This document shows, one piece after another, positions 1,523 through 26,917 of a stretch of 64,000 nt of DNA. The notes below the pieces were generated by a model. It was given only the letters and a program-made list of their open reading frames with translations, made no database searches and was not told the DNA's origin. Every line of letters starts with the position of its first letter. The stretch's first letter is position 1. The DNA is taken from positions 4,776,001 through 4,840,000 of the forward strand of contig CM075995.1 in assembly GCA_038087875.1 (NCBI GenBank), given 5' to 3'. The stretch comes from Malacoraja senta. Taxonomy: Eukaryota. A program made the position numbers and the translations under genes.

Positions 1523-2177
1523 CTAAAGTTCTGCCATCTAAAGTCCTGCCATTTAAATCTCTACTCTTATAGCAACATTTCATACTGAAGAAGGGTGTCG
1601 TCCCAAAACGTTGCCCATTCCTTTTCTCCAGTGATGCAGCTTTTTGTGTCTATCTTCGGTTTAAATCAGCATCAGCGGTTCCTTCCTACACATTTTATAC
1701 TTCAACTATGATATCTGTACACTGAATGGCTCGATTGTAATCATGTATTGTCTTTCTGCTGACTGGTTAGCATGCAACAAAAAGCTTTTCACTCTACCTC
1801 GGTACACGTGACAATAAATAAGCTAAATTAAACCAAAACTAAATGAAGCTAACTCTGCGGGTCACCCAGCATCTCTTGAGGCAATGGGTAGCTGATATTT
1901 TGAGTCAAGTCCCTTCTTTAGACTTATGGGTAGTTTGGGGCAGAGAGCAGGAAGAAAGGTTGGGACAGGACAAAGCCTGTGGCAAGTGATAGGTGGATAC
2001 AGTGACCGTGTGTGTGTGTGATCGGCAGGTGGGTGGACAAAGGCTAGAGATGTAAAAGGAGAAAACGAGGTGTCAAATAGGGAAAGAACCTGTGAAGGAT
2101 GAATGAATTGTAATGCCAGAGGGAGGGGGGAAATACAGGTGGAAGAGAACAACATAAAGGGGGTAGGATAGTGGGAG

Positions 2178-2855
2178 ACGCAGCTCTACAGGACTTTGGT
2201 TAGGCTGCATTTGGACTATCGTGTGCAGTTCTGGTCACCCCATTACAGGAAAAATGTGGAGGCTTTGGAGAGGTTGCAGAGGAGGTTTACCAGAATGCTG
2301 CCTGGATTAGAGGGTTTCAGCTACAGGGCGAGGTTGGATAGACATGGATTGTTGTCTCTGGAATGACATAGGTTGAGGGATGCTTGATAGAAGTAAATAA
2401 AATGATGAGAGGCTTAAATAGGGTAGTCAGAACCTTTTTTCCCCATGGTGGAAATGTCCAACACTAGAGGGCATAACTAAGGTAAGAGGGGGAAAGTTTT
2501 ATGTCCAGCACAAGTTTTTTTACACAGAGAGTGGTGGGGGCCTGGAACGCATTGCCAGGGGTGGTGGTGGAGGCAGATATAGTGGCATTTAAGAGGATTT
2601 CAGATAGGCAGATGGAAGGATATGGATCATGTGCAGGCAGAGTGTCAGGGGTTAGGGGGCGAAGGCAGGGGAATGGGGTTGAGATGGAAAGGTAGATCAG
2701 CCATGATTGAGTGATGGAGTAGACTTGATGGGCCGAACGTCCTTATTCTGCTCCTAGAACTTATGAAGTTGAGAACAGTTTAACTAGGCATCATGTTTAG
2801 CACAAACATTGTGGGCCAAAGGGCCTGTTCCTGTGCTGTGCTGTTCTATGTTCTA
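2178..2855 (+). mobile_element. Degenerate CR1 LINE 3' fragment(s)
   Basis: QLYRTLVRLHLDY.VQFWSPHYRK and FFTQRVVGAWNALP motifs with stops and frameshifts; CR1-type tail. Confidence 0.8.
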
Positions 2856-3204
2856 AATGCTTGGGGCACATGAAACAGATGGGATAGAGGGGGCACAGGA
2901 GGGAGAGAGAGGGAAGAAGTGAGGATGGACGGAGAAGAGAGGGGGGGGGGGGAATTTGGGGGGGGGGGGGAGAGGTTTACCTAAAATTGGAGCATTCAAT
3001 ATTTATATGGTTGGGTTGTAAGTTACCCATTAAATTTCCCATTTGTCTCCATGAAATGATTGCAAGTGGCCGCCTGTCCTTTCGCAAGGAAATATACTGA
3101 AGCTTAGCCAGACTCCTAGTGCGCTGGATATAAAACTTATCGGCATCAGACACTTTGCAAGCGCTCCACCTGAGAAGGTGTTGCAAGCAATGTTTGCTAC
3201 ATGA

Positions 3205-3320
3205 TCAGTCCCCGGAAGCTGCTGTCAGTCAGTGGCGGGGCGGGGCGGCGCTGGCGATGAGAGCGCTTGGAGCTGGTGCATCGATTCGAGGCTGCAGCGA
3301 GGAAGGCGAGGGTCCACCAA
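3205..3320 (+). promoter_or_regulatory. Small CpG/GC-rich unique segment with ETS-like CCGGAAG and tandem GC boxes
   Basis: CCCCGGAAGC at ~3210 and GGCGGGGCGGGGCGGCG at ~3234-3250 in non-repetitive, locally CpG-rich sequence upstream of a splice-donor match at 3420. Motif match only. Confidence 0.3.
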
Positions 3321-3380
3321 GCAAACGCCCACCACAGCACTTCTTCACCTTGTGGTGGCTTCACCTGCACACCATCCCAG

Positions 3381-3419
3381 AAGAACCTGGATCCAACAAA
3401 AGCGTCCCCGACCCTGCAG
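3381..3419 (+). CDS. Candidate 39-nt exon (KNLDPTKASPTLQ in phase 0), or 3' end of a longer first exon
   Basis: CTTCACCTGCACACCATCCCAG acceptor with TGC at -15; donor CAG|GTTAGT; length a multiple of 3. Host gene not recognised. Confidence 0.3.
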
Positions 3420-3474
3420 GTTAGTGTAAAGTAATGCACTTTAAACATTCACATTTTGACTGCAGCATTTGTTA

Positions 3475-3885
3475 CATATGCAAATTGCTGGAGAGAAAAA
3501 CGGGTCTGGAGAGAAGGAATGGGTGTCGTTTCGGGTCGAGACACTTCCTCAAACTGAGTCAGGGGAGAGGGAGACTAGAGATATGGAAGGGCAAGGTGTG
3601 AAAACGACAGATCAAAGCAGATGCTGGTAAGGAAATGTACAGTGGTTCATTTTTAATTGAGGGTAAGGTGACAAGGAGGCATACAATCAGTAAAATGAAG
3701 ATAGACACAAAATGCTGGAGTAACTCAGCGGGTCAGGCAGCATCCCTGGAGAGAAGGAGAAAGGAAATGACCATCCCTTGCTTTCCCTCTCCCATCCTAG
3801 TTCTCCGACTGGTTTCACTATCCTGATTAATTTTACTGTTTGTATGCCTCGTTGTCACTTTCCCTTCAGCCAAGAATGAACCATT
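3475..3885. mobile_element. Penelope-like terminal repeat fragments in both orientations
   Basis: GTTTCGGGTCGAGAC.CTTC and ACACAAAATGCTGGAGTAACTCAGCGGG modules; 3625-3695 is inverted relative to 3825-3885. Confidence 0.7.
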
Positions 3886-3886
3886 A

Positions 3887-5110
3887 GAAACATAGAAAAT
3901 AGGTGCAGGAGTAGGCCATTCGGCCCTTCGAGCCTGCACCGCCATTCAATATGATCATGGCTGATCATCCAACTCAGTATCCTGTACCTGCCTTCTCTCC
4001 ATACCCCCTGATCCCTTTAGCCACATGGGCCACATCTAACTCCCTCTTAAATATAGCCAATGAACTGGCCTCGACTACCTTCTGTTGCAGAGAATTCCAG
4101 AGATTCACCACTCTCTGTGTGAAAAATGTTTTTCTCATCTCGGTCCTAAAAGATTTCCCCCTTATCCTTAAACTGTGACCCCTTGATCTGGACTTCCCCA
4201 ACATCGGGAACAATCTTCCTGCATCTAGCCTGTCCAACCCCTTAAGAATTTTGTAAGTTTCTATAAGATCCCCCCTCAATCTTCTAAATTCTAGCGAGTG
4301 CAAGCCGAGTCTATCCAGTCTTTCTTCATATGAAAGTCCGGACATCCCAGGAATCAGTCTGGTGAACCTTCTCTGTACTCCCTCTATGGCAAGAATGTCT
4401 TTCCTCAGATTTGGAGACCAAAACTGTACGCAATACTCCAGGTGTGGTTTCACCAAGACCCAGTACAACTGCAGTAGAACCTCCCTGCTCCGATACTCAA
4501 ATCCTTTTGCTATGAATGCTAACATACCATTCGCTTTCTTCACTGCCTGCTGCACCTGCATGCCTACTTTCAATGACTGGTGTACCATGACACCCAGGTC
4601 TCGTTGCATGTCGCCTTTTCCTAATCGGCCACCATTCAGATAATAGTCTACTTTCCTGTTTTTGCCACCAAAGTGGATAACCTCACATTTATCCACATTA
4701 TACTGCATCTGCCATGCATTTGCCCACTCACCCAGCCTATCCAAGTCACCTTGCAGCCTCCTAGCATCCTCCTCACAGCTAACACTGCCCCCCAGCTTCG
4801 TGTCATCCGCAAACTTGGAGATGTTGCATTCAATTCCCTCGTCCAAATCATTAATATATATTGTAAATAGCTGGGGTCCCAGCACTGAGCCTTGCGGTAC
4901 CCCACTAGTCACTGCCTGCCATTCTGAAAAGGACCCGTTTACTCCTACTCTTTGCTTCCTGTCTGCCAGCCAGTTCTCTATCCACATCAATACTGAACCC
5001 CCAATACCGTGTGCTTTAAGTTTGTATACTAATCTCTGAAAGTCCAGATATAACACATCCACTGGTTCTCCCTTATCCACTCTACTAGTTACATCCTCGA
5101 AAAATTCTAC
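3887..5110 (-). mobile_element. CR1 LINE ORF2 (reverse transcriptase to 3' end), 5'-truncated
   Basis: 411-aa ORF with VDVLYLDFQ, SGVPQGSVLGPQLFTIYINDL, KFADDTKL and RRLRGDLIETYKI; small in-frame deletion of the KAFDKVPH motif; CR1 tail. Confidence 0.96.
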
Positions 5111-5277
5111 ATTTTCCTTTGTCACTCCCCTTTGATCTGTCGTTTCACACCTTACCCATATCGCAAATTTCCCTCTCTCCTGAAGAAGGGTCTTGAACCG
5201 AAATGTCACCCATTCCTCCTCTCCTGAGATGCTGCCTGACCCTCTGAGTTACTCCAGCATTTTGTGTCTATCTTCGC
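5110..5277 (+). mobile_element. Penelope-like terminal repeat between two head-to-head CR1s
   Basis: CTGAAGAAGGGTCTTGAACCGAAATGTCACC...GAGTTACTCCAGCATTTTGTGTCTATCTTCG module. Confidence 0.75.
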
Positions 5278-7468
5278 AAAGATTTAAGGATGAACTCCAA
5301 AAATTGTTCAACCCTGAATCGCGAAAAAATAAAATGGGGAAGGCGTCTCAACCGTGGCTAACGAGGGAAATCAAGGATAGTGTTAAATCCAAGGAAAAGG
5401 CATATAAATTGGCCAAAGGAAGCAGCAAACCGGAGAAATCTAGAATTCAACAGAGGAGGACAAAGGGGTTAATTAAGAGGGGGGAAAAGAGCATGAAAGA
5501 AAGCTTGCGGGGAATATAAAAACGGACTCTAAAAGCTTCTTTACCTATGTAATAAGGAAAAGATTAGTGAAGACAAATGTAAGGCCCTTACAATCAGAGA
5601 TAGGTGAATTTATAGTGGGAAACAAAGAAATGGCAGAACAGTTAAACAAGCACTTTGGTTCTGTCTTCACTAAGGAAGACACAAACAATCTCCCCGAAAT
5701 ACTAGGGGACCGAGGATCTAGTGGGAGGGAGGAACTGAAGGGAATCCACATTAGTCAGAAAATGGTGTTAGGTAAACTGTTGGGACTGGAGGCAGATAAA
5801 TCCCCAGGGCCCGATGGTCTGCATCCCAGAGTACTTAAGGAGGTGGCCCTAGAAATCATAGATGCATTGGTGATCATTTTCCAATGTTCTCTCGACTCTG
5901 GATCAGTTCCTGTGGACTGAAGGGTAGCCAATGTAACCCTGCTTTTTAAGAAAGGAGGGAGAGAGAAAACGGGGAATTAAAGACCAGTTAGCCTTACATT
6001 GGTAGTGGGGAAGATGCTTGAGTCGATTGATAAAGATGTTATAGCAGCGCATTTGGTGATCGCTTCGCCCAGCACCTCCGCTCGGTTCGCAATAACCAAC
6101 CTGATCTCCCGGTGGCTCAGCACTTCAACTCCCCCTCCCATTCTGAATCTGACCTTTCTGTCCTCGGCCTCCTCCATGGCCAGAGTGAGGAGAGTGAGGA
6201 CCACCGTAAATTGGAGGAGCAGCACCTCATATTTCGCTTGGGCAGTTTGCACCCCAGCGGTATGAACATTGACTTCTCTAATTTCAGGTAGTCCTTTCTT
6301 TCTCCTCCCCATCTCAGCTCTCCCTCAGCCCACTGGCTCCACCTCTTTCTTTCTTCTTCCTGCCCCCTCCCCCCCCCCACCGAAGGGTTTCGGCCCGAAA
6401 CGTTGCCTATTTCCTTCGCTCCATAGATGCTGCCTCACCCGCTGAGTTTCTCCAGCATTTTTGTCTACCTTCAGTCAAAGTCAGCATGGATTTATGAAGG
6501 GGCAATCATGCTTGACTAATCTTCTGGAATTTTTTGAGGATGTAACAAGTAGAATGGATAAGGGAGAGCCAGTGGATGTGGTGTATCTGGACTTTTTGAC
6601 AGCGTCCCACACAAGAGATTAGTGTGCAAAATTAGAGCACATGGTATTGGGGGTAGGGTATTGACATGGATAGAGTACTGGTTGGCAGACAGGAAGCAAA
6701 GAGTAGGAATTAACAGGTCCTTTTCAGAATGGCAGGCAGTGACTAGTGGGGTGCCGCAAGGCTCAGTGCTGGGACCCCAGTTATTTACAATATATATTAA
6801 CGATTTAGACGAGGGAATTAAATGTGACATCTCCAAATTTGCGAATGCCACAAAGCTGGGTGGCAGTGTGAGCTGCGAGGAGGATGCTATGAGGCTGCAG
6901 GGTGACTTGGATAGGTTGGGTGAGTGGGCAGATACATGGCAGATGCAGTATAATGTGGATAAATGTGAAGTTATCCACTTTGGTGGCAATAACAGGAAGG
7001 CAGATTATTATCTGAATTATGTAAGATTAGGAAAAGGGGAGGTGCAACAAAACCATGGTGTGCTTGTATATCAGTCACTGAAAGTAAGCATGCAGGTGCA
7101 GCAGGCCGTGAAGAAAGTTGGTCTTCATTGCAAGAAGATTTGAGTTTAGGAGCAAGGAGGTCCGACTGAAGTTGTACAGGGCCCCGATGAGACTGCACCT
7201 GGAGTATTGTGTGCAATTTTGTTCTTCTAATTTGAGGAAGGACATTATTGCTATTGAGTGAGTGCAGCCTAGGTTCACCAGGTTAATTCCCGGGATGGCG
7301 GGACTGACATATGATGAAAGAATGGGTCAACTGGGCTAAAGGAATCAAGGGATATGGGGAAAAAGCAGGAACAGGGTACTGATTCTAGATGATCAGCCAT
7401 GATCATATTCAATGCCGGTGCTGCCTCAGAGGGCTGAATGGCCTACTCCTGCACCTATTTTTCTATGT
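5278..7468 (+). mobile_element. Degenerate CR1 LINE ORF2, interrupted by a Penelope fragment and internally deleted near its 3' end
   Basis: PWLTREIK, KSPGPDGLHPRVLKE, SGVPQGSVLGPQLF and KFANATKL (degenerate FADD); stops and frameshifts; CR1 tail at ~7340-7468. Confidence 0.95.
6055..6472 (+). mobile_element. Penelope-like element 3' fragment (GIY-YIG endonuclease C-terminus plus terminal repeat) nested in CR1
   Basis: Manual translation of 6055-6291: GDRFAQHLRSVRNNQPDLPVAQHFNSPSHSESDLSVLGLLHGQSEESEDHRKLEEQHLIFRLGSLHPSGMNIDFSNFR*, matching the RF..H...HF...LE...I..L....P.G.N pattern of Penelope endonucleases. CR1 coding sequence resumes at ~6473. Confidence 0.85.
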
Positions 7469-8050
7469 TTTGGTGCAAACCAGCCTTTGCACTTCCTTCC
7501 TACACATTTGCTAAACGCAGTTGCCCAATGTCATTTGTGATGCTTCTCAGAAATTGCTTAATGGTTCCTTCCGAAGTTAGTTATGTATCAGGGGGGTGGG
7601 GAGGGGAGGAGAGACTCAGACTCTGAACGTAACTTCAGTGGCTGGATTTAGGTTCCCTGGTGGAGTTATGTTGAAACATGCAGATGGTGCTCTGATGAAG
7701 TGTCTCGACCTGAAACGTCACCTATTCCTTCTCTCCTGAGATGCTGCCTGTCCCGGGTCGAGTTACTCCAGCAATTTGTGTCTATCAATGATGCTCTTTA
7801 AAATACTTGCAGAACCTCTCACGTAGTCATCATCTGAATCCATTGGTATTCACGACGTTGACCTCTAGATCTTGACCTCTAGATCTGGAGAAGGCAGGAA
7901 CGGGGTACTGATTGGGGATGATCAGCCATGATCACATTGAATGGCTGGCTCGAAGGGCCAAATGGCCTACTCCTGCACCTATTGACTATTGTCTATTTAC
8001 CTGTGGCTGTTAACATGGATCAGTAAGCACTCAGTGTAAATGATCAAATG

Positions 8051-10336
8051 ATCTCTGGATGCAGAGAAAGCATTTGATCAGGTAGAGTGGCAGTATTTAT
8101 ATAAAGTACTGCAAAAATTTAATATGGGAGAGAATTTTATTGCATGGGTAAAATTATTATATGATAAACCGATGGCAAGAATATTAACCAATAATATGTT
8201 ATCTCCAAAATTTCAATTATCAAGGGGCAATAGGCAGGGATGTGCGTTATCACCCCTGCTATTTGCCCCTGGCTGAAAGTATAAGAATTCATCTGAATAT
8301 CCAGGGATACAATACTAGGGACTCAAATAATAAAATTTCATTATATGCAGACGATATACTTTTATATATTACAAATTCACAAACGAGCATACCAAATTTA
8401 TTTAATTTAATAGAGGAATTCGGGTCCTTTTCTGGATATAGAATAAACTGGAATAAAAGTGAAATCATGACGTTAAAACCTCAAGAATCTACACACTTAT
8501 TGAAATTCCCCTTTAAAATTGCAACAGAAAAATTTAAATATTTAGGTATTCAAATTACTAGAAAATATAAAGCATTATTTAACGCTAATTTTATGCCTTT
8601 ATTAAATAAACTCAACACGTTGATTACATTCTGGAAAACACTTCCCTTATCATTAATAGGTAGAATAAACGCTATTAAAATGATCTTTCTACCACAATTA
8701 TTATACCTATTTCAATCTATACCATTATATACACCAATTTTTTTTAATTTTTAATTAGACTCTAATATTACTAATTTTATTTGGGATTATAGATCACACA
8801 GAATTTAAAAAAAACACTTATGTGAACCAAAAGAGGTCGGGGGACTTTCACTTCCGAACTTTTTGTATTACTATTGGGCAGTGCATATTAAGAATATAAT
8901 TTACTGGTTGGACAGTTCTACCCAACAGACAGAATGGATAAGAATGGAGAAAGAGGATTGTTTTCCTTGTAATATAGGGGCGATCCTCTTCTCCCTGACA
9001 AAACTGAACAACACAATATATAAGAAGAACCCAATTATACATGATACAATAAGAATTTGGAAACAGATAAAATTATCTCTAAAATTAAGAAATCTATCAT
9101 TGTTAATGCCAATAGCGAATAATCCTTCATTTAAACCATTGATAAAACATATAACCAAAGGGAAAGAATGGGAATTAAAAGGATCGGTGATATGTATGAA
9201 ATGGGAAACCTATTATCATTCCAACAATTATAATTAAAATTTAAACTGAAAAATAACCAATATTTTAAATATCTTCAGATTTGCGATTTCATGAAGAAAT
9301 ACAAACAAGGATATCAAAACATAACTTTTGATTTACTGGAAGAAGCAATGAATATTAAGGCTGACTCACAGAAATTAATATCATATTTATATAATAGTAT
9401 TTTAAATATAGACCTACCATCGACAGAGGTACTTAGAGAAGAGTGGGAACGGGAATTAATGATAAAACTTACGAAGGTTACATGGGAAAAGTATTTGATA
9501 TATATACACAAATGTTCGATTAATGCAAGATAATTTAATTCAATTTAAAATTTTACATAGATTATATTATTCAAAAACTAGATTGAATAAATTTTATCCA
9601 AATATATCCCCCATTTGTGATAAATGTCTATCCCAAAACGCAACTATAACACACTCTTTCGTTTCCTGCATAAAACTTTATAAATGTTGGAGTGATATTT
9701 TTGAAATATTTACAAAATTATTCAAGATAAAAATGGAACCTAATACTGAAATGATTATATTTGGAGTAATGGAAGACGGGAATAAATTGAACTCATCTCA
9801 AAATTTATTTTTTAATTATGGTTTAATAATAGCAAAAAAACTAATACTTAAATTCTGGAAAAATACACCAATACCAATGCTTAAAATGTGGATTTCAAGC
9901 ATGTTGGACACCGCACATCTTGAGGAAATGCGATTCCTCCTGATAGATAAATCAGACCAATTCTTAACGAGTTGGTCTCCATTTGTCGTCTTTTTGGAAG
10001 CATATGGTGCAACACAATTGTAGAAGCTAACTGTTCCAGGACTGGGTGAGGGATGGTTAAGATTATAAATAATGATCTCCTTATTTTTCTTTTTTCTTTT
10101 CTACTCTCTTTCTTTCTACTTTTCTTCTTTCACTCTTTTTTTTCTTTTTCACATACTATATATCTCACGTTTTTCTATCTTTTATTATCTATTCTCTTTT
10201 TCTTTTTCTTCTTTATTATAGTAAAAAATATATAAGAAGCTGTACATAAAATGTATTATGTCAATATATATTAGGCACTTTGGTGCCATATGATTGTACT
10301 TACTTCTAATAAAATTAAAATATATATATTTTTTAA
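8051..10336 (+). mobile_element. 5'-truncated L1-clade LINE ORF2 with 15-bp TSD
   Basis: SLDAEKAFDQVEW, RGNRQGCALSPLLF, ISLYADDILLYI, FKYLGIQI, LSLIGRINAIKM and C-terminal CDKC...H....C zinc knuckle; T-rich 3' UTR; AATAAA at 10308; GTAAATGATCAAATG at 8036-8050 and 10337-10351. Confidence 0.95.
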
Positions 10337-10729
10337 GTAAATGATCAAATGTGGTACTGGTTTCTGCATGATTAATAGTGGGCTGTGTTTGGCTTTTAAA
10401 ATGTGGCGTCTCTCATTCCTCCCTTAATTAAGGAGTCACCTAACTATTCAAAGGCTGTGGGCTGGCTGGTTCTTGTAGATGGTACCTGCTGCAGCCATCA
10501 AGTGTTGATGATGAAGAGTTCAAATGTTTAAGCAGGTGGGTGGCTTGCCAACCAAACCGGTTGCAGTGACCTGGCCGGTGTCAAGTTTCTCTGGCGTCGC
10601 TGTAATGTATTCCAGCCCACTGTCGACATGTATATTTGTAGGTGATGTGCAGGCAGATGGCATTAGTTTAAGTTGTCATCATAATCAGTGTAGACATGGT
10701 GGGTTGAAGGGCCTGTACCTCTGCTGTAG

Positions 10730-11150
10730 TGTATAGGTAAGAGCTGCAGATGCTGGTTTAAATTGGAGATAGACGCAAAGCTGGAGGTACTCAGCGGGAC
10801 AGGCAGCATTTCTGGAGAGAAGGAATGGGTGACGTTTCAGGTTGAGACCCTTCTTCAGACTGGTTAGGGATAAGGGAAACGAGAGATATAGACGATGAGG
10901 TAGGGGAATAAAGAACAATGAATGAAAGATACGCAAAAAAGTAACGATGATAAAGCATTGTTAGCTGTTTGTAGGGTGAAAACGAGAAGTTGGTGTGACT
11001 TGGGTGGGGGTGGGATAGAGGGAGAGGGAATGCCGGGGCTAATTGAAATGAGAAAAATCAATATTCATATCACTGGGCGGTAAGCTGCCCAAGCGAAATA
11101 TGGGATACAATTCCTCCAATTTGCGTTTAGTCACGCTGGCAATGGAAGAG
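10730..11150 (-). mobile_element. Penelope-like 3' fragment
   Basis: Terminal repeat module followed by the reverse complement of the endonuclease C-terminus (GCTGCCCAAGCGAAATAT...CCTCCAATTTGCG). Confidence 0.8.
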
Positions 11151-11375
11151 ACTGCTGTATTCTATTTTTTTAACGAAAAGCTTTGCGGTGTCAGAAGATG
11201 CATTAATTAGTTGTTAATAATTAATGCAGTTAATGGGATTAATTTTAGTTCCTAACTCAGAGCTGTGATTTCAATGTGAATCACTCACTAATAAATGTGT
11301 AGAGTTGCTCTCTTTCCTAATGGTGACATTTTGGGTTGGGACCCTTCTTCAGAGTGGCCTCAAAAAACACTCAAT

Positions 11376-11403
11376 CTGAAGAAGGGTCTCGACCCGAAAC
11401 GTC
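11376..11403 (+). ncRNA. Minimal hammerhead-ribozyme-like motif in a Penelope terminal repeat (best-preserved copy)
   Basis: CUGAAGA-A-GGGU(CUCG)ACCC-GAAA-CG-UC: CUGANGA box, stem II, GAAA box, palindromic ACGU stem III and a GUC cleavage triplet. Stem I is weak in this copy. Confidence 0.6.
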
Positions 11404-11847
11404 ACCTGTCCATGTTCTCCAGGGATGCTGTCTGCCCCGCAGAGTTACTCCAGCACGTTGTCTTTTTTTGTAAACCAGCAACTCCAGTTCCTTCTTTCTC
11501 TACTACGATTCCACTCGATGGTCTACAGTTGGATAGATCACTCTTTGACACACTGGGGCCAACACTCCTGTGAGGCGGAACCTACTTTGTTATGATGCTA
11601 ATGTGATGTGTGAATAATGTGCCCCATGTGTTAACAAGTGCTCTGTACAATGCAGCCAGTTATATTTGTTGCCTGATGAAATTAATCTTACCGATTTTTT
11701 CTTTCAAACCTTTTCACATCATTGCCACCGTAAGACCACCAAGTGTTTTTTTTTTCATCCTTCACTTGTAGATGCCTCTCTCAGGACAAAAGTAATTCAA
11801 GTTTTTCAGCACACCTCAACTTTGCACTGAAATGTCAGCCTCGATAA

Positions 11848-12390
11848 TTTAGAGCATTGTGTTCAGTTTTGGGCACCATGTCATAGGAAAGATGTTGTCA
11901 AGCTGGAAAGGGTGCAGGGAAGATTTACGAGGATGTTGCCAAGACACGAAGGCCTGAGCTATGATAGGGAGAGGTTGAGTGAGCTGGGATTCTATTCCTT
12001 GGAGCTCAGGAAGATGAGGGGTGATCTTATAGAGATATATAAAATGATGAGAGGAATAGATCGGGTAGATGCACAGCCTTTTGTCCAGAGTAGGGGAATC
12101 GAGAACCAGAGGACATCGGTTTAAGGTGAGGGGGGAAAGATCTAATAAGAATCTGAGGGGTAACTTTTTCACGCAAGGGATGGTAGGTGTATGGAACAGA
12201 GGAGGTAGTTGAGGGTGGTACCATCGCAACATTTAAGAAACATTTAGACAGATACATGCATTGGATAGGCATAGAAGGATATTGGCCAAAAACAGATAGG
12301 TGAGACCAGTGTAGATGGGACATGTTGGTCGTGTGGGAAGGTTGGGCCGAAGGGCCTGTTTCGATGCTGTAAGACCCTATGATTATGACC
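11848..12390 (+). mobile_element. CR1/HER1-type LINE 3' fragment
   Basis: QGRFTRMLP...LGFYSLELRKMRGDLIEIYKMMRGIDRV plus tail. Confidence 0.88.
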
Positions 12391-13950
12391 TTAGGTGCAG
12401 TTCAGAGTTATGTTGTTCTTACAACTGTGACAGAGTATTTTCAGTATTTTCCAGTTTTATTTGCCACAAGGGCCTCCCTGTTTTTGTTCCCCTTTTTAAA
12501 GATGTGATGTTCTCACACTCAGGTGAAATAAGTATAATCTTCTTACCTAACTTACAGATTTTGAGAAACACATTGTCGGGGAAGGAATGAATTAGATTCT
12601 TTTATCTTCACGCACAAAGCAATATGTTAATATTTTTCAATTGTGAGGCTAAAGGTGAATGTCCCATTGTGAGATCTCATTTATAATTAATCCTCGGTTT
12701 GGTTTGACAATCTCATCGTGCATCTTGCAAGCTTTACAAAGTTCAGATTTGGTTTTCCTCCAGAAATAGACCCCTTCCCTAATAAGAAGGCCAACTGTGA
12801 AAATGGCAATTGAAATTAGTTTTTTGTGTTCGAGAAAGTGACCATGTCTTGCAAATGCTGATGAAGTCTTGACAGACTCTGATTGATAAAGGGACACAAA
12901 GTGCTGGAGTAACTCAGCATCTCTGGAGAACTGGGGAGTCTGATTCATGTTCATTACCGTGAAATGAAGTCGATTTTATTGGAACGTAAACAGGTTTACA
13001 AAAAGACTTACTAGAACTTTGTCCAATTGGAGCAATGTAGAGAAATGGACTTACAATAAAGGCCAACATATTGTTTGAGAAGGGTTCTGATCCAAAATAT
13101 CACATCGATTGTAATCATGTATAGTCTTCTTTGACTGGATAGCACACAAACAAAAGCTTTTCACTGTACCATGGTGCATGTGACAATAAAAAACTAAACT
13201 AAACACCTATCCATGTTCTCCAGAGATGCTGCCTGACCCGCAGAGTTACTTAAGCACTTTGTGTCTTTTTTTGTAAACCAGCATCTGCAGTTCCTTGATT
13301 CTCCATATTGTTTTTCTTTCTAATTGTTTATTCTGCCTGCCTATTAACTTATAATGATTCACGGAAAGGACATATGAACATCAATACATTTCTATCTTTT
13401 ACCACTGGGAAAATACTCATAGTTTTATTTCCTTCCACTAAATTTACATATTTTATTCCAACCTGTGGCCCAATTTTCTATCATCAGCAAACTTGGATGG
13501 TGGGGTTAAGTATAACATTTCCAAATCATTGGGTTTGACCTTGGACAGCTGGAGTCCAACACTGATCCATGCAACAATCAGCTAGTCACACCCTCCCAAC
13601 CCACAAAAAGGGTATTTTAATCATTGCTTTCTGTCTACTTGATTGAAGCGGAAGCAATGAATTTGTTAGTTGGCCGAAAGGTATGAATTCAATGATATTT
13701 TATTGTCAAATGTACCTAAGTATAATGAAGATAGACACAAAATGCTGGAGTAACTCTGCGGGACAGGTAGCATTTCTAGAGAGAAGGAATGGGTGAGACC
13801 CTTCTTCAGTAAATTGAAATGCTTTGTTTTGCACACAGCCCGGTAAAATCATACAGTAGACTGTACCTCGGCAGTGCACAAGTGTCGCCACGTGTGTGAC
13901 GCCGACAAAGTGACAAAAGTTCACTGTCTTCTGTCCGCGTGTGCAAAGCC

Positions 13951-14275
13951 GGGGCGGCACGGTGGCGCAGCGGTAGAGTTGCTGCCTTACAGCCCTTACA
14001 GCTCCAGAGACCCAGTTCAATCCTGACTACCGGCTGCTGTCTGTGCGGAGTTTGTACGTTCTTCCCGTGATCGTGTGGATTTTCTCCGGGTGCTCCGGTT
14101 TCCTCCCACATTCCAAAGACGTATAGGTTGCAGGTTAATTGGCTTGGTACAAATGTAAATTGTACCTAGAGTGTGTAGGATAGTGTTATTGTGCAGGGAT
14201 CGCCGGTCGGTGTGGACTCGGTGGCCCGAAGTGCCTGTTTACGCCCTGTAAACGTAAAAACTAAAAACAAAACGA
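13951..14275 (+). mobile_element. tRNA-derived V-SINE (HE1-like)
   Basis: A box TGGCGCAGCGG, B-box-like GTTCAATCC, V-domain GGAGTTTGTACGTTCT...CTCCGGTTTCCTCCCACA and CR1-derived tail. Confidence 0.88.
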
Positions 14276-14647
14276 AAGGGGCGAACGGTTAAACAGATGG
14301 GTGAAGGGTAACCACTTGTGTAACCACTAGGCACTGTGGTGTGCTATGGTTTTCTAATTTCAATGTAATTAGTTCATTGTCTCAAATGCCAGTCCTTAGA
14401 TGGCAGACTGTCAGAACCTTTTTTCCCCAGGGTGGAAATTTAAAATGCTAGAGAGCATAGCGTTAAGGTGAGGGTCAAAGTTCAAAGGGGAGGTCTGGGA
14501 CAAAGCTTTTTACGCAAGAGTGGGGGGTGCCTTGAACGTATTGCCAGGGGTGGTGGTGGTGGAGGAAGAAATATTAGCGGCATTTAAGAGGCTTTTATGT
14601 AGGGAATGGAGGGGGGTGGATCATCCCATGGCAAATGAGAGTAGTTT

Positions 14648-15100
14648 ATGTAGGAAAGAACTGTAGATGCTGGTTTAAATCGAAGGTAGACACAAAATGC
14701 TGGGGTAACTCAGCGGGACAGGCAGCATCTCCGGAGAGAAGGAATGGGTGACGTTTCGGGTCGAGACAATTCTTCAGACTGATGTCAGGGGAGTGGGCGG
14801 TTCTGAGATAAAATGTAGGCGGAGACAGTAAGACTGGTGGGAGGATTGGGAAGGGGGATGGGATGGAGAGGGAGGGAAAGTAAGGGCTATATGAAGTGAG
14901 AGAAGTCAATGTTCATATATTGACTTCTCTCACTGGGGTGTAAACTGCCCAAGCGAAATATGAGGTGCTGTTCCCCCAATTTGCGCTGGGCCTCACTTTG
15001 ACAATGGAGGAGGCCCAGGACGGAAAGGTCAGTGTGGGAATGGGAGGGGGAGTTAAAGTGTTAAGCAACCGAGAGATCAGTAGGTTTAGGCGGACTGAGC
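14648..15100 (-). mobile_element. Penelope-like 3' fragment
   Basis: Reverse-complement homologue of 6090-6472; very similar to 23380-23785. Confidence 0.85.
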
Positions 15101-15497
15101 GGCCTTCTGTTCGGCACAGACATGTTGGGCCAAAAAGCCTGTTTCCTCTGTGCTGTACTTTTCTATGTGCTATGTGCTATAGCAGTTGTATCTAAGGCAG
15201 AATTTCAACAGATATTTGGTGGGAAAATTTGGAAGGGTAATAGGTGTAAATGTTACATTGCAACAGCGGCATGAATTTGTTCAGAGAAAATGTGTTATTG
15301 AAGGAAGCAAATCTTGCAACATACTGATGGAAATGAGATCATTTTGTTTGATAAGTGGCAAGGAAATTTTGCTGGGGAACTTGATGTAGATTGGCGTTCT
15401 ACTCACAGATTAAATGCCAACACTGTAGGAAATATTTTCAGCTTTTGTGTTATCTTATGCACTGAAGTCCTTTTACATTTTTGCGCTGATTCTCTAG

Positions 15498-15524
15498 ACG
15501 GTGCTTGATTCTGTACCATTGCCG
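15498..15524 (+). CDS. Candidate 27-nt microexon (TVLDSVPLP in phase 0)
   Basis: CCTTTTACATTTTTGCGCTGATTCTCTAG|ACGGTGCTTGATTCTGTACCATTGCCG|GTGAGT: pyrimidine tract, TGC at -16, consensus donor, 9 codons, unique sequence. Confidence 0.5.
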
Positions 15525-15606
15525 GTGAGTTTTATTTATCGGGGTGGTTGGAGGTCTGTGGGGGAAACATCGGATTTTTAAAAATCAGTAAGGCACAGAA
15601 GGATGT

Positions 15607-16113
15607 CATAGAGTGATATAGTGTGGAAACAGGCCCCTCGGCCCAACATGTCCCAGCTACACTAGTCCCACCTGCACTTGTTTGGGCCTTATCCCTCCAC
15701 ACCTGTGCCTGTCTAACTGTTTCTTAAACGTTGGGATAATCCCTGCCTTAACTACCTCCTCTGGCAGCTTGTTCCATACACCCACCACCCTTTGTGTGAA
15801 AAAGTTACCACTCTGATTCCTATTAAATCTTTTCCCCTTCACCATAAACCTATTTCCTCTGGTCCTCGATTCACCTTCTCTGGGCAAGAGACTCTTTGCA
15901 TCTACCCGATCTATTCCTCTCATGATTTTATACACCTCTATAAGATCATCCCCTCATCCTCCTGCGCTCCAAGGAAAAGAGTTCCAGCCTATTCAACCTC
16001 TGCCTCTAGCCCAGACCCTCTAGTCCTGGCAACATCCTTATAAATCTTCTCTGTACCCTTTCCATCTTGGCAATATCTTTCCTATAACACGATGCCCAGA
16101 ACTGAACACAATA
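15607..16113 (-). mobile_element. CR1/HER1-type LINE 3' fragment
   Basis: ORF 15657-15935 YKIMRGIDRVDA...FFTQRVVGVWNKLPEEVV. Confidence 0.88.
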
Positions 16114-16953
16114 TTGTCATTGGACTCATAACAGCTGTGCCAGTTCTTTGCTCTCTCGCATAACCTTGTCATCCCCATTCACCATAGCATTACGAGTTAT
16201 TTTTCCCGCATGTGCTTATCCAATTTCCTTCCAGTTTGATCCTTTCTTCAATATCAGTTTTGGTTTATATTTATCACCTACATTGAGATACAGTGAAAAG
16301 TTTTGTTTTGCGTGCTATCCAGGCAGATCATACCTTACATGAGTACTTTAGGTAGTGATAATGAGAAAATAAATCCTGAGCAGAATATAGTGTTACATTT
16401 ACAGTGAAAGTGTAGATTAAAGATAAAAGTGCAAGGGCAGCAACAAGGTAGATTGGAAGATTGTGAATTCATCCCATCACATGAGAGGTCCATACAAGAA
16501 TCTTTCAAGCTTTTGTATCTTCTGCCTGAATGGAGAATGAAGAAGTGAGAATGACCCGGGTGTGAGTAGCCCTTGCATGGTGTAGATTGTGGGGTGGGGG
16601 GGGGGGGGGTGTTGGAGGTAGGGGGAAGCTGGTTTGTTTGATGGATCGGGCTATGTTTACAACTCTCTGCCATCTCTTGTGGCCATGGGCAAAGCTGATG
16701 TAGAAATCTGATGTAGGCAGCTTGTTATCCAAATGTTCCAGGGATGAGTGTGGGAGGTGGCCCCTGCCGTGGACCTGTTCTGTAGTAGGTGAATTGCTCT
16801 GGATCTAGGCTATCTAGGAGGTTGAGGTGCACCATGACCAGCCTCTCATAGGACTTCATGATGGTGGGTGTTAGAGCTGTGGGCGGTAGTCATTCATGCA
16901 CATTATCTTGTTTTTCATAGATTTGAAGACAGTGGAAGCTTTATACTCTAGAT

Positions 16954-17096
16954 CAAGGGTTCCCAACCTGGGGTAAATTTAGGGTAAATTTCACCTACCC
17001 AAGGGGTAAATTTGTTGATTCTGGATTTGTAGATATTTTTTCTCATTGACTGACTGTGTAGGGGTAAACGGGACGAAAAAGGTTGGGGAACCCCTG
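16954..17096. mobile_element. hAT (Charlie-like) MITE, 143 bp
   Basis: TIRs CAAGGGTTCCCAACCT / AGGTTGGGGAACCCCTG; flanks CTCTAGAT and ATCTAGGT match at 6 of 8 positions and resemble the NTCTAGAN target; internal GGGGTAAA repeats. Confidence 0.8.
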
Positions 17097-18479
17097 ATCT
17101 AGGTGATCCCAAGCCATCGATTGAGGTAGTCCATGAACAATAATGATGGCTTTTTATTTCTTATGTTAGTTCTTATGTTTCGCAAGCTTCAGAATTCCAT
17201 AATATGGGTGAAATCTCCTCCCATGCAGCACACATCTGCAATTTATTTTAATTATAAGGAACACCGATTAATCCACGAGATCTCCATTTAATACTCAAAT
17301 GGAAATAGCATGCAGTACGTGTGGAGTCACCAGGAATTTAAAAAAAATCAAGAACTCCAAGACACGAGGGAAATTTAGAACCCTTGACTCTTAACTTTGC
17401 AAAGAATTCTATGCAAGCCAAAACATGAATCAGGTACAATGGTACAACACTCTGCAGACAGTGCGATTTGCAACTTCTCTGGTCAATAAAAGATTATTTA
17501 TGTGTATTCATGTAAAGCTTGGTACACGCGACAATAAACTAAACTGAACCGATTCTGCAGGTACCATCACAAAGTTTAGGAACCATTTAGACAGGTACAT
17601 GGCTAGGATAGGTTTTGAGGGATATGGGCCAAACGCAGGCAGGTGGGACTAGTGTAGATGGGGCATGCTGTCGATATGGGCAAGTTGGGCCGATGCGCCT
17701 GTTTGCATGCTATATCACTCTATAAGCCACGTCATTAGGTCATAAGTGATAGTAGAATGAGGCCATTCGGCCCATCGTCTATTCTGCCATTCAATCATGG
17801 TTGATCTATCTTTCCCTCCCAACCTCATTCTCCTGCCTTCTCCCCATAACCTGTACTAATCAAGAATCTATTTCTTTGCCTTAAAAATATCCACTGACTT
17901 GGCCTCCACAGCCTTCCGTGGCAAAGAATTACACAGAATTACACAGATAAATAAATTTCTCCTCATCTCCTTCCTAAAAGAACATCCTTTAATTCTGAGG
18001 CCATGACTTCTAGTCCTAGACTCTCCCACTCGTGGAAACATCTTCTTCACATCCACATTATTGTAGCTGGAGGTATGTTGTTTGTGTTGTGCAGTGCCGT
18101 ATCCCTTCACAAAGTGACTGCAAAGACCATGTCGGCATTGGTGGGGACACATCAATAGGAATTGCTGGGAAACCTAGCTACGGTGTTAAATGAACCTCTG
18201 ATTAAAGTTCTCATTTTACATCCGTCTTTTGTGGACAGCATTAGGTTGATGCACCACGCTGCTTTCAATGCCTAAGGAATGCTATAGAGCAGCTTATAGA
18301 CTGTGTGAAGTTGTTCACCCTTGACACTTGAATCCTTTTCTTGGTATGCTGATATTTTGACATAGGTCGAGCTGCAATTAAAATGCTTTGATATTGTGAG
18401 GTGAGGGGAGGGAAAGGTAATTATTTTCTGATTATTAGCCAGACACCTCAGTTGGATTGTATTGAAGCGAGCAAGGCAA

Positions 18480-19120
18480 ATTCAATGCTAGCGTTTATAT
18501 CAAGATGACTGGAATACAAAAGCAGAGAATGTAATACTGAGGCTCTACAAGGTGCTGGTCAGGCTGCATTTGGAGTCGTGTGAGCAAATTTGTGCCTCGT
18601 ATCTGAGGAAGGATGTGCTGGCTCTGGAGAGGGTCCAGAGGAGGTTTACAAGAATGATTCCAGGATTGAGTGGGTTAGCATAAGATGAGCGTTTGACTGC
18701 ACTGGGTCTCTACTCGCTGGAGTTTGGAAGGTTGAGGGGGGATCTCATTGAAACTTACAGAATAATGAAAGACATAGATAGAGCGGATGTGGAAAGGATG
18801 TTTCCACTGGTGGGAGAGTCTAGGACCAGAGGTCATAGCCTCAGAATTAAAGGGCGCTCTTTTAGAAAGGAGGTGAGGACGAACTTCTTTAGTCAGAGGG
18901 TAGTTAATCTGTGGAACTCATTGCCACAGAGGGCTGTGGAGGCCAAGTCAGTGGATATTTTTTAAGGCAGAGATAGACAAATTCTTGATTAGAATGGGTC
19001 TCAAGGGTTATAGGGGAGAAGGCAGGAAAATGGGATTAGGAGGCAGATATCAGCCACGATTGAATGGCATAGACCATAGGCCGAATGGCCTCATTCTACT
19101 CCTGTAACTTGTGAACTTGT
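18480..19120 (+). mobile_element. CR1 LINE 3' fragment
   Basis: LGLYSLEFGRLRGDLIETYRIMK...FFSQRVVNLWNSLPQ; (CTTGTGAA)n tail. Confidence 0.9.
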
Positions 19121-19227
19121 GAGTAGACTGATAATGTGTTTTGAGATTGTGTAGTATATTGATATCCTTTTTCTGTTGCTGTGATAAGTGCTGGAACTTC
19201 TTACCTGTCATCGGTGTCCTTAATACA

Positions 19228-19520
19228 GTTTAGTTTATAGATACAGCGCGCGGAAACAGGCCCACCTGAGTCCGCGTCGACCAGCGATCCTCGTACATTA
19301 ACACTATCCTACACACACTGGGGACAGTTTACAATTATACCAAGCCAAGTAGTCTACAAACCTATACGTCTTTGTAGTGTGGGAGGAAACTGGAGCATCC
19401 GGGAAAAAAGCCACGCAGGTCACGGGGAGAACGTACAGACAAGCACCTGTAGTCAGGATCGAACACGGGTCTCTGGCGCTGTAAAGCAGCAACTTTACTG
19501 CTGCGCCACCATGCCGCCCT
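19228..19520 (-). mobile_element. V-SINE (HE1-like)
   Basis: Reverse complement of the SINE family at 13951. Confidence 0.85.
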
Positions 19521-21818
19521 CCCCTCCCCATTGACTGCAGTAGTTTTTTGAGGGAGCTCATCTCTGCAATCCTGAAGGGCGGGCAATAACGCTAATCTTG
19601 CCAGCGGCTACCATGTGTTTACAGCTACCCATATATTAAAAATTAATTGCAGCTGCACAGTTTGCAACATCCAGTGCAGGTAGAAAACAAATGGGAGCCG
19701 TAAGGTGGAGACACTAGAAAGTGTCGATACATGAATCTTGAAAGTGCTGGAGTAACTCAGCGAGTCAGGCAGCATCTGTGGAGGGAATGGATAGGTGACG
19801 TTTCAGCTCAGGACCCTTCTTCAAGTCCCTGGTCAGAACATGGCTGAAGGGCAGGATGGTAGCAGGAATCACAGAGGGGGAGCCCTGAGAGATGAAAACC
19901 GTTGCCCTGAGGAAATGTAAGGGTTTATCTCTCTATTAAGGAGTCTGTTGAAGATGAGGAATTTCTTTAGCCAGAAGGTGGTGAATTTGCGGAATTCTTT
20001 GCCACAGATGGCTGTGGAGGCCAAGACATTGGGTATTTTTAAAGCGGAGATTGATAAGGTCTCGATTCGGAAGGGTTTCAAAGGTTATGGGCAGAAGCCA
20101 GGAGAATGGGGTTGAGTGGGAAAAATAGATCAACCATGATTGAATGGCGGAGTAGAGTCGATGGGCTGAATGGCCTAATTCTGCTCCAATGTTTTATGGT
20201 CTTATGTTGCAAGGATTCGCTTTCCGTATTTATTTTCCACCTCATTTCATTTTTCCATGTCTCCTGCTTTGTTAATCAATAAACCTTGCATGCAAGGATG
20301 ATGGTATTTCCTTCCAGTCGCTGTTCACTTGCCTGAAGTAACGTTGTGCAGCATATGCAAATGCAAATGTAGACTTTTGGAGCCCTCAATTATCATTCAC
20401 ATTGTGTTAGAAGGTATTAAAAATAACTCTTCACCCACACCAATCTGTTTTCCAACAGAAGGTTATGTACGTGGGAGGAATTCCAATTTGCCAACTGGGC
20501 GTGCTTAAAGAGTCTAATAATTCTTTTGCTGATGTTGCGAGCAAGTGCTGCCAGAACTTCCTCTTTGTAAGACTTCTCTCTTCCTTTGTGGGATGGGTTT
20601 AAAATCAGTCGTGTAAATATTCACTGTTGATGCCTTGCCTATGAAAATGGTTCTGATCAGGAACTGCAGATGCTGGTTTAAACCGAAGATAGACACAAAA
20701 AGCTGGAGCCATCTGAAGAAGGGTCTCGACCCGAAACCTCACCCATTCCTTCTCTCCAGAGATGCTGGTCCCGCTGAGTAACTCCAGCTTTTTGTGTCTA
20801 TCTTAGCTTATTGTCTCGTATACCAGGGTGTAATGAAATTCATTGTTTGCATGAAGCTCATAGTACATTGTGTCCATGTTAATGATACAATACAACATTG
20901 ATTGCAAAATGGACGGCAGAATAGGGCAAAGATTATAAATGCAATCGGAGGTTGTGCAAAACAAAATACTGATGTGCAATAACAGAATAATCGAGTTAGG
21001 TAGAGTTAAGACTAAGAATACGTGGCAGAACCTCTGGGGAAAGGGGATGAGAAAGACATGATTATGAATCTGATAACAGTCGAGAAGAAGCTGTTCTTAA
21101 GTCTGGGTGTCTGAGTTTTCAAGCTTCTGATTCTTCTCCCAGATGATTTTGTTTAGTTTAGAGATACAGCATGGGAAACAGGCCCTTCGGCCCACCGAGT
21201 CCACGCTGACCATTGATCACCCAGTCACACTGATTTTATGCTACCCCACCACCAACACACCAGGTGCAATTTTACGGGCCATTTAACCTACAAACCCACG
21301 CGTCTTTGGGATGTGGGATTAAACCGGAACACCTGGAGGAAAACCCTGACCCAGAGCAGTTTATTGTCTCATACACCAGGGAGTAATGAAATTCATTGTT
21401 TGCAAGAAGTTCAGAGTACACTGTGTGCATGTTAATGATACATACAATAATAAATGCAACATTGAATGCAAAACAGCAGAAGATTACAGTGCAATCCGAG
21501 ACAAAATACTGAAGTGTAATAACAGAAGAATTGAGTTGGGTAGAGTCTAGTTTAGTTTATTATCACATGCACTGAGGTACAATGAAAAGGTTTTTTTGTG
21601 TGCTAACCAGTCAGCAGAAAGACTATACACGATTACAATCGAGCCATCCACAATGTACAGATGCATGATAAAGGGAATAACATGAATAACGTTTAGTGCA
21701 GAATAAAGCCAGCAACGTCCGATCAAAGGGTCACCAATGAGGTAGATAGTAGCTCAGGACTGCTCTCTAGTTGTGGTAGGATGGTTCAGTTGCCAGATAA
21801 CAGCTGGGAAGAAATTAA

Positions 21819-22241
21819 TGGGCCTGTCCCACTAAGGCTATTTTTAGGCGACTGCCGCGACTGTCATAGTCGTAGCAGGTCGAAGAAAAAACGGTGACTG
21901 GACCCCCCTTCAACATAAAATTTGAAATAGAATCATTACTATATCAACAACAAAAAAACAGTCAGCACCGGCGACAACCTACGCTAACCTGGCAACAACT
22001 ACGACAGCACCTACGTCAGGAGAAGTCAACCTACGCTCATTGGTGTCAAACCCACTGTCGCCGACTGTCTCTGAAAAATTTTCAACATCTTGAAAATCCA
22101 GCAGCGACCAGGAAGACGCTACGACTCTTTGGGCGACTGAGGAGACTACTCATGACCATACAGGTGACACCCCGGCGACCATGTGGCGACAGCCTAGTCA
22201 CCTGTAGTCGCCTAAAAAATAGCCTAAGTGGGACAGGCCCA
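21819..22241. mobile_element. PIF/Harbinger-type MITE A (~420 bp)
   Basis: TIRs TGGGCCTGTCCCACTAAGGCTATTTTTAGGCGACT / AGTCGCCTAAAAAATAGCCTAAGTGGGACAGGCCCA; TAA on the left flank; non-coding CpG-rich interior with GCGAC repeats. Confidence 0.85.
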
Positions 22242-22399
22242 CCTCTGAATCTGAAGTAAGAGTAAGTGTACTTGGCAGCACCTCTGGGAAAAGGAATGTG
22301 AAAGAACTGATTAGGAATCTGACAGTAGTGGGGAAGAAGCTGTTAATTCAGGATGTCTGAGTTTTCAAACCTCTGAACCTTCTCCCTGAAGATCTTTTT

Positions 22400-22710
22400 T
22401 AGTTTAGAGATACAGCATGGAAACAGGCCCTTCAGCCCACTAAGTCCGCGCCAACCATCGATTGCCCATTCATGCTAGTTCTACGTTAACCCGCCTTCGC
22501 GTCCACTGAATACACACTAGAGGCAATTTACAGAGGGCCAATTAACCTACAGACCTGCACGTCTTTGGGATGAGGGTGGAAACTGGAGCACCCGAAGGAA
22601 ACCGATGCGGCCACAGGGAGAACGTGCAAACTCCACACAGACAGCACCCGAAGTCAGAATCAAACTAGGGATCTCTGATGCTGAGGCCTACTGCCACACT
22701 GTTGCTGCCA
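22400..22710 (-). mobile_element. V-SINE (HE1-like), older copy
   Basis: TTAGTTTAGAGATACAGCATGGAAACAGGCCC tail and GGAGAACGTGCAAACTCCACACAGACAGC V-domain, reverse orientation. Confidence 0.8.
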
Positions 22711-23029
22711 AAGTGGTGCAGGTGGTTCGAGGTAGAGGAGAGGCCATGCAAGGTAGAAGAGCAAAAAGGGAATGACCAGGATGGCAGTCATCCTTGACGA
22801 TACATAGAATCATAGAGTGATACTGTGTGGAAACAGGCTCTTCGGATCAAATTGCCCACACCAGCCAACATGTCCCAGTTACACTAGTCCCACCTGCCTG
22901 CACTTGGTCCATATCCCTCCAAACCTGTCCTATCCATGTACCTGTCAAACTGTTTCTTAAATGTTGGGATAGTCCCAGCCTCAGCTACCTACTCTGGCAG
23001 CTTGTTCCATACACCCACCACGCCATATG

Positions 23030-23378
23030 CTTTCCATGTTGCTGTATACACTTTCAAAATGTACAGGTGTATGGTGGAGAGTATATTGACTGGTTGCTTC
23101 GTGGCTTGGTTCTTGAATTAAAACGCTCGATAACGAAGGAGGCTGCAGAAAGGGGTGGACATTGTTGAATCCATCAATGGTATTGATCTCCCCACCATCG
23201 AATGGATCTACTGGATGCGCTGCTGGAAGAAGGCAGATAATGTCATCAAAGACACACATTACCCTGGCCGTGCTCCTTCCCAGCTGCAAACATCAGGATT
23301 TAGGAACAGGAGCCTGAGAACCATTATCTCCAGGTGCAACAGCCACCACTTCCCATTAACAATCAAGTTCTTGAACCA
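23030..23378 (+). mobile_element. Old Rex/Babar- or L2-like LINE fragment (post-RT C-terminal region)
   Basis: YRCMVESILTGCFVAWF and IY..RC.KKA..VIKDTHYPG motifs. Confidence 0.65.
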
Positions 23379-23379
23379 T

Positions 23380-23785: not shown

Positions 23786-23804
23786 GTTTCTTTTCCTTCT
23801 TAGT

Positions 23805-26865: not shown

Positions 26866-26917
26866 ATATCTAAATGCTGGGAAAATATCTTGGTTGTCCA
26901 ATGCTGACCTTGTCAAC

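Follow-up and report, generated by a model that had tools for sequence, protein, structure and literature searches.

The 28-nucleotide motif that recurs in the window (the whole 64-kb stretch of Malacoraja senta DNA analysed here) comes, with near certainty, from the pseudo-LTR (pLTR) of a Penelope-like element (PLE), and it is very probably a true descendant of a minimal hammerhead ribozyme. Most of its copies are short insertions that start directly before the CUGA of the motif, a point that a preliminary description of this DNA had overlooked. The association of hammerheads with pLTRs has already been published and our finding is in that respect confirmatory, with one new lead in the form of an overlap between the motif and promoter-like positions.

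The focal copy, on the plus strand, matches the 28-mer exactly, and the window contains 21 matches at up to three mismatches (none in 100 shuffles) and 34 at up to eight (mean 0.04 in 50 shuffles). Nineteen of these 34 are independent copies; the other 15 are duplicates, because a 27.6-kb segment recurs in direct orientation across a gap of 200 Ns (Table 1). This is probably a false duplication, that is an assembly overlap of unmerged haplotypes, which doubles every feature within it, and that half of the window is a duplicate had also gone unnoticed. All 16 copies listed in the preliminary description were found, together with three that it had missed at 1894, 11325 and 26303, each on the minus strand. 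Sixteen of the 19 lie within six mismatches of the 28-mer, approximately 2.4 times the density in our genome sample (280 in 1.40 Mb), and just two of the 19, at 11376 (+) and 10831 (-), pass the strict minimal-hammerhead descriptor, in keeping with the general decay that had been described. The copy at 24943, previously singled out for its stem I, is present but has lost G12 and one stem II pair, and G12 is also gone from the copy at 1585. As reported before, the motif remnant near 6381, which lacks CUGA, begins 90 nt past an endonuclease stop codon.

Table 1. Features of the window; positions are counted from its first nucleotide.
Feature	Position	Strand	Remarks
Focal minimal hammerhead motif	11376..11403	+	Exact 28-mer match; descriptor-intact
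Focal core	CUGAAGA 11376-11382; extra A 11383; GAAA 11396-11399	+	
Focal stem II and palindrome	Stem II 11384-11387/11392-11395; ACGU 11399-11402	+	
Focal predicted cut	After C11403	+	Predicted; stem I only 1 bp
Short Penelope pLTR/leader insertion with focal motif and tail	11373..11500	+	81.5% identity to closest young consensus; covers element positions about -3 to +126 (0 = C of CUGA)
Inverted arm, motif only	11322..11353	-	Four mismatches; 22 nt from focal copy
Penelope 3' fragment: GIY-YIG C-terminus, UTR, tail	6052..6472	+	Stop 6289-6291; motif 6377-6404 with CUGA deleted; nested in LINE remnant
Penelope 3' fragment	10727..11152	-	Endonuclease remnant 11137-11045; descriptor-intact motif 10831-10858
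Penelope 3' fragment	14645..15078	-	Endonuclease remnant; motif 14750-14777, stem II broken
Penelope 3' fragment	23379..23783	-	Endonuclease remnant; motif 23482-23509, stem II and G12 broken
Head-to-head insertion	20659..20804	+	Inverted tail arm 20659-20708, then arm from 1 nt before CUGA (motif 20713-20740)
Head-to-head insertion	27289..27502	+	Inverted arm 27289-27408, then arm from -2 (motif 27412-27439)
Head-to-head insertion	30604..30834	+	Inverted arm 30604-30692, then arm from -3 (motif 30704-30731)
Solo short insertion	7691..7786	+	From -1 (motif 7692-7719)
Solo short insertion	24941..25012	+	From -2 (motif 24943-24970)
Span of all 19 independent copies	1585..32503	both	
Remaining independent copies	1585, 5180	+	
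Remaining independent copies	1894, 3525, 19797, 25907, 26303, 32290	-	
Duplicate block	33126..60718	+	99.27% identity to 5347-32925; 15 duplicate motif matches

It had also been suggested that some copies lie within a probable intron. This setting is unsupported because a host exon was not found: among the candidates in 12 unique stretches and in the last 3.3 kb of the window, none was convincing. Repeats make up 74% of the first 33 kb. LINE remnants with RVT_1 matches, which we take to resemble CR1 and L1, are present at 3974-5248 (-), 5347-7380 (+) and 8188-10023 (+), the second of them containing the Penelope fragment at 6052-6472. Rfam miRNA matches to simple-repeat hairpins at 31920-32000 and 26827-26958 scored below gathering thresholds and are artefacts.

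The very high number of motifs that had been proposed for this genome was borne out by counting them. The exact 28-mer occurs 18,728 times in the 1.94-Gb assembly (reversed control, 0) and a second form of the motif 19,101 times. Position N7 had been given as A or T; A stands, but T is rare, with 395 exact copies. For diverged copies we sampled 140 stretches of 10 kb, chosen blind at round coordinates on contigs C1-C23 with small contigs left out, and found 17 exact matches, 198 at up to four mismatches and 280 at up to six, which scales to 0.28-0.39 million copies genome-wide. The strict descriptor matched 68 times in the 1,397,400 nt (0-2 times in each of five shuffles), extrapolating to some 95,000 intact cores. 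On contig C3341 (L074 and L075) we noted an 8.35-kb unit with at least three repeats and two motif copies in each.

The source of the motif can be recognised in the window itself, where an open frame at 6058-6288 encodes an endonuclease C-terminus of 77 amino acids. Pfam gave no match to this fragment, and it was identified because it is 79% similar to the ORF of the full element; endonuclease remnants also lie upstream of the motif in three further window copies. From 150 scored reverse transcriptase (RT) matches we picked the 12 loci with the longest open frames (L241-L252, for example C1:20901200-20909199), which run to 1057-1302 amino acids. In all 12 the motif lies about 115-120 nt past the ORF stop and in five it is also found 163 nt before the ATG, one locus (L242) being a partial tandem. 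The motif thus adjoins full-length RT and GIY-YIG reading frames on both sides, and its proposed origin from Penelope terminal repeats is confirmed. The element protein, of 1212 amino acids, is encoded by a single ORF with RT and C-terminal GIY-YIG domains. Its matches to RVT_1 (E = 5.9e-4) and GIY-YIG (E = 1.3e-3) are both below the Pfam gathering cut-offs, and the translation contains a DKG motif and a Cx4CxxC linker; a Cx2-5CxxC linker is reported for Neptune and Nematis in the accessible text of bioRxiv 10.1101/2021.04.23.441226. We class the element, from its sequence, as an EN+ PLE of Neptune type, the call between Neptune and Nematis resting on motifs. Direct pLTR repeats or partial tandems, inverted 5' copies and a tail spacing of approximately 36 nt, all of them Neptune-type features, were each observed.

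The other 11 long-ORF loci are 98.7-99.4% identical to L243 and the subfamily is therefore young; its open frames suggest that it is likely to be recently or still active. At least six subfamilies could be distinguished, with CAGT, core and tail in common and with differing upstream UTRs. In the leader of L243 there is a 41-codon upstream ORF (2879-3004) that runs, in another reading frame, across the main ATG at 2992 and that could damp translation.

In order to describe where copies begin and end, we numbered element positions from the C of CUGA (0), with the predicted cut between +27 and +28, and anchored arms by their tails only, so as not to miss templates that had been cut. Out of 702 tail anchors 626 could be scored, the rest lying near stretch ends or lacking alignment overlap, and removal of duplicates, weak scores, arms short of +73 and ends beyond +60 left 457 arms (311 solo, 146 head-to-head). 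An earlier mapping of 461 arms and the mapping of 457 arms with a trimmed reference gave the same result. The 3' ends peak at +93-96 and +129-132, 36 nt apart (461-arm mapping). At the 5' side, 98 of the 457 arms end at -5 to -1, where 4.4 are expected from the background rate, and the mode lies at -3, the A of TCAGT (25 arms, 20 of them solo). More widely, 251 arms end at -10 to +14, spread over this interval and not at any single base, while 92 end at -21 or beyond and 57 reach -110 or beyond.

At the cut site, five arms end at +28 and seven at +27 to +29 against 4.9 expected (P = 0.23). A weak and broad excess was seen over +20 to +34 (1.8-fold; 17 against 8.2 at +26 to +30), and cleavage may therefore have affected a few percent of templates. 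In simulations uniform truncation gave a flat profile and a point end was recovered exactly in 44-55% of trials, which leaves no more than a few percent of templates with an end at the cut. Because the 5' ends pile up before CUGA and not at the cut, we conclude that most copies likely arose by reverse transcription of an mRNA leader that had not been cut. Pyrimidines make up 50% of the left flanks in the peak class, and these flanks are therefore not hidden subfamily UTRs. Target duplications of at least 7 nt were seen in 19 of 45 young solo arms, a count with no null for comparison. The base to the left of the -3 ends was G in ten, A in nine and T in one (n = 20); a cap signature, in the form of an extra G, was considered and rejected, as the target-duplication junctions had no consistent G. 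We also observed a recurrent head-to-head junction (for example in L217, L143, L207 and L114) at which both arms end at +10 and overlap by 15 nt over a near-palindrome that takes in loop II and GAAAC; an end at +10 was seen in 14 paired arms.

The earlier parse of the motif as a minimal type I hammerhead holds for all six subfamily consensuses, each of which contains CUGANGA, GAAA and NUH, with GUC or GUU as the triplet. The extra nucleotide after A9, the G10.1-C11.1 pair and the palindromic 15.2-16.2 are all present, and the fourth extra trait of PMC4209133, consensus families, is present or fits. Differences among the subfamilies lie in loop II, in U-A against U-G pairs in stem II and in stem I, and in H17 (C or U), and all of them keep the fold. 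Comparison with the Rfam hammerhead models, a check that the preliminary description had suggested, gave no match at E<=1 in the window or at E<=10 in the full-length pLTR, and pair covariation in the 19 aligned copies was not better than in shuffles.

Stem I is 2 bp long in all six consensuses. It had been described as short (2-3 bp), and it is; but this is a consensus feature of every subfamily and not a product of decay. Of the 68 intact cores, 54 have a stem I of 2 bp, 11 a shorter one and three a longer one, flanking DNA providing a 4-bp stem in two, and a third pair fails in 15 of the 19 aligned copies. An older PLE family was also noted (L253-L262, L173, L194 and L199), with endonuclease remnants upstream in three of ten loci. 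It has one extra C before CUGA and one extra G after H17, which form an additional C-G pair at the base of stem I, and its A9 is changed to C. In its ten genome matches, found with a search pattern that fixed only the 5' side of stem I, six pair over 3-5 bp, three have a change expected from CpG decay and one is otherwise broken. Such a compensatory pair speaks for past selection on stem I, albeit in the same family that carries the A9 to C change.

Non-CpG sites of the core are better conserved than the tail. Over 62 long arms, 15 of 606 such core positions depart from consensus, compared with 85 of 1804 positions in the tail (P = 0.018); a similar test on 166 arms (P = 1e-4) was set aside owing to alignment-edge bias. 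G12, which is catalytic and lies in a CpG, has been lost in 8 of 59 cases, a rate similar to that of other CpGs (12-15%). We read these figures as pointing to constraint on the source elements and neutral decay after insertion.

The doubt already expressed about activity was reinforced both by the 2-bp stem I and by folding. For 43-nt RNAs, the hammerhead dimer helices were calculated at -6.5 (young form), -0.9 and +0.1 (focal) kcal/mol, whereas their most stable dimer folds reach -28.8, -14.6 and -21.1 kcal/mol, respectively, under energy models that take no account of Mg2+ or tertiary contacts. The prediction for naked RNA is that it does not form the active dimer. Given the 2-bp stem I and the unfavourable active fold, cleavage, if any, is likely to need the element protein; we put protein-assisted cleavage in young elements at a little short of an even chance, and regard measurable cleavage of the naked natural dimer as doubtful. 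The focal copy and its inverted neighbour are predicted to pair into a long hairpin (-56.5 kcal/mol, z -7.9) in which the core would be hidden, and because of this hairpin and its 1-bp stem I the focal copy is likely to be inert.

Position -3, where the 5' ends have their mode, is the A of TCAGTC, which fully matches the initiator TCA+1GTY (6/6 in five subfamilies, 5/6 in one; initiator, MTE and DPE consensus taken from PMC5580651). With this A as +1, the revised MTE sequence CGANC falls at +18 to +22 (4/4 in five of the six subfamilies, 3/4 in the youngest) and the DPE sequence RGWYV at +28 to +32 matches at 4/5. The two fit jointly at shift 0 only out of 17 shifts, with a probability of 0.002 given the hammerhead constraints, or 0.035 when the older 12-letter form of the MTE is used. 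The second MTE contact, CGG at +27 to +29, matches at 1/3, and in the older family the promoter spacing is shifted by 1 nt. As the test was chosen after the sequence had been seen, the promoter overlap is a lead and not a result; a literature search that covered few subscription papers found none on hammerhead/promoter overlap. Tentatively, the same 35 letters might act at the DNA level as an Inr-MTE-DPE core promoter and, once transcribed, as a hammerhead, a start 3 nt before CUGA limiting stem I to 2-3 bp and making the ribozyme a protein-gated switch that could clip off a capped 31-nt mRNA end, although we consider this dual reading rather unlikely. If it were true, the half-million short copies would be a fossil map of the uncut state and the young family with intact ORFs would be a vertebrate Neptune system for testing it.

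The explanation that we favour, and that as a whole we think probable, is that the short insertions are reverse-transcribed uncut leaders of PLE mRNA. The A of TCAGT is probably the transcription start, acting as an initiator, and a start there would place the motif 3 nt from the cap and hence limit stem I to at most 3 bp (2 observed). The element RT would likely use as template the first 95-135 nt, still uncut, of the mRNA that encodes it. In the Anolis element RT starts at two internal sites, both target strands are extended and uncut RNA is preferred (PMC11167929, accessible text). By analogy, the skate RT would prime internally at about +95 or +131 on the leader and run to the cap, so that priming by one target strand would give solo copies of 100 or 135 bp and priming by both strands would give head-to-head pairs, and long copies could come from priming at the 3' pLTR. 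The Anolis hammerhead is inactive without protein and is dispensable for insertion (PMC11167929). The skate ribozyme is likely to be latent; cleavage would need the element protein and would take place on source transcripts, removing the capped 31-nt end or separating tandem units. Inserted copies, the focal one included, would likely decay neutrally and be functionless.

A potential explanation that would not need to invoke catalysis is that the hammerhead is vestigial in this lineage and that its letters are now kept mainly as an Inr-MTE-DPE promoter and an RT-binding leader. The joint fit of CGANC and RGWYV at a single shift (probability 0.002) speaks for this view, and the 2-bp stem I, the energies of the hammerhead dimer (-6.5 to +0.1 kcal/mol, compared with -15 to -29 for the most stable dimer), the A9 to C change in the older family and the spread of Naiad elements without a hammerhead (bioRxiv 2021.04.23.441226, accessible text) point the same way. 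However, CUGANGA (+4 to +10) is invariant in six subfamilies at positions where promoter motifs are generally absent (PMC5580651), the core has fewer non-CpG differences than the tail (P = 0.018), and the extra stem I pair of the older family is compensatory while moving the promoter spacing by 1 nt. Moreover CGG matches at just one position in three, and the energy models leave out Mg2+ and tertiary contacts; we take a vestigial hammerhead to be somewhat unlikely. At the other extreme, the ribozyme could cleave efficiently in vivo as a natural dimer, with inserted copies cutting host transcripts. This we hold to be very unlikely, given that 54 of 68 intact cores have a stem I of 2 bp and 11 a shorter one, that the active fold is unfavourable, that G12 is unprotected after insertion and that dimeric minimal hammerheads are credited with low activity only in the accessible text of PMC4209133, even though some 95,000 intact cores are extrapolated, two of 68 gain a 4-bp stem I from their flanks and 5' ends are weakly enriched near the cut.

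Two further alternatives concern the shared boundary and the short copies themselves. These copies might form an independent SINE-like or retrozyme-like family amplifying from its own solo copies, as short arms outnumber long ones (251 ending at -10 to +14 against 57 reaching -110 or beyond, of 457) and retain the downstream promoter-like positions together with both priming sites. We judge this improbable: short copies are found with the tail of each subfamily, the youngest autonomous one among them, those in the window are dispersed and not arrayed in tandem, and the 3' ends of short copies fall at the two points that long copies also use. The boundary could instead be a 3' splice site (pyrimidine tract, CAG/T), in which case splicing would lengthen stem I. 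A pyrimidine tract and CAG do lie directly upstream in all six subfamilies, and an intron ends at helix I in the Penelope of D. virilis (PMC4209133, accessible text). Nevertheless, the mode is at -3 with the AG kept (20 solo arms) and not at -1 (13), and the left flanks are mutually unrelated, have a pyrimidine fraction of 0.50, often show a target duplication and share no exon, which makes a splice site scarcely probable.

Minimal hammerheads are known from metazoan PLEs, including Xena, Poseidon and Neptune of fish (PMC4209133). The skate motif resembles these in its pLTR location, full core, extra nucleotide after A9, G10.1-C11.1 pair, palindromic 15.2-16.2 and lack of loop III, and in occurring mostly as single copies associated with truncated elements. 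Its stem II has 4 bp against 7-8 in Schistosoma, and its stem I has 2 bp against 4-5 in Schistosoma and 2 in D. virilis (PMC4209133). The same source gives 4,000 motifs for coelacanth and 9,000 for Xenopus, compared with our extrapolated 95,000 or so intact cores, the descriptors being different. One of its two supplements names no skate or shark, and our search of the literature, covering few subscription papers, found nothing on such motifs in skates or rays.

Among individual systems, Poseidon PAc of Anolis carolinensis is alike in having two internal RT start sites that give the tail, in the extension of both strands and in the use of uncut RNA as main template (PMC11167929). The skate ORF differs in its Neptune-type zinc-finger linker and in beginning 163 nt past the motif, whereas the PAc ORF begins inside it; cleavage, with protein assistance, has been demonstrated for PAc and is putative in the skate. 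Neptune-clade EN+ PLEs share with the skate element the RT, Cx2-5CxxC linker and C-terminal GIY-YIG, partial tandems, inverted 5' copies, a tail of 30-40 bp and a pLTR hammerhead (bioRxiv 10.1101/2021.04.23.441226). The Penelope of D. virilis likewise has a TATA-less internal pLTR promoter with an initiator and downstream element/DPE, and a 75-bp intron from 46 bp past the start (PMC2377424), helix I lying at the intron end (PMC4209133); the skate motif would, in contrast, overlap the core promoter itself. Animal non-LTR retrozymes, for which one chondrichthyan genome is positive, are also non-coding, hammerhead-bearing and pLTR-derived, but they are tandem hammerhead arrays, whereas the 19 copies in the window lie scattered over both strands as solo or head-to-head insertions (bioRxiv 10.64898/2026.07.22.740005, accessible text). 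Craig et al. call the role of PLE hammerheads unclear (bioRxiv 10.1101/2021.04.23.441226). To that question the present genome brings a large natural sample in which the inserted templates are almost all uncut, a motif that apparently sits at the very start of the mRNA over promoter-like positions, which narrows its possible roles, and young intact elements in which the role of the hammerhead can be tested directly.
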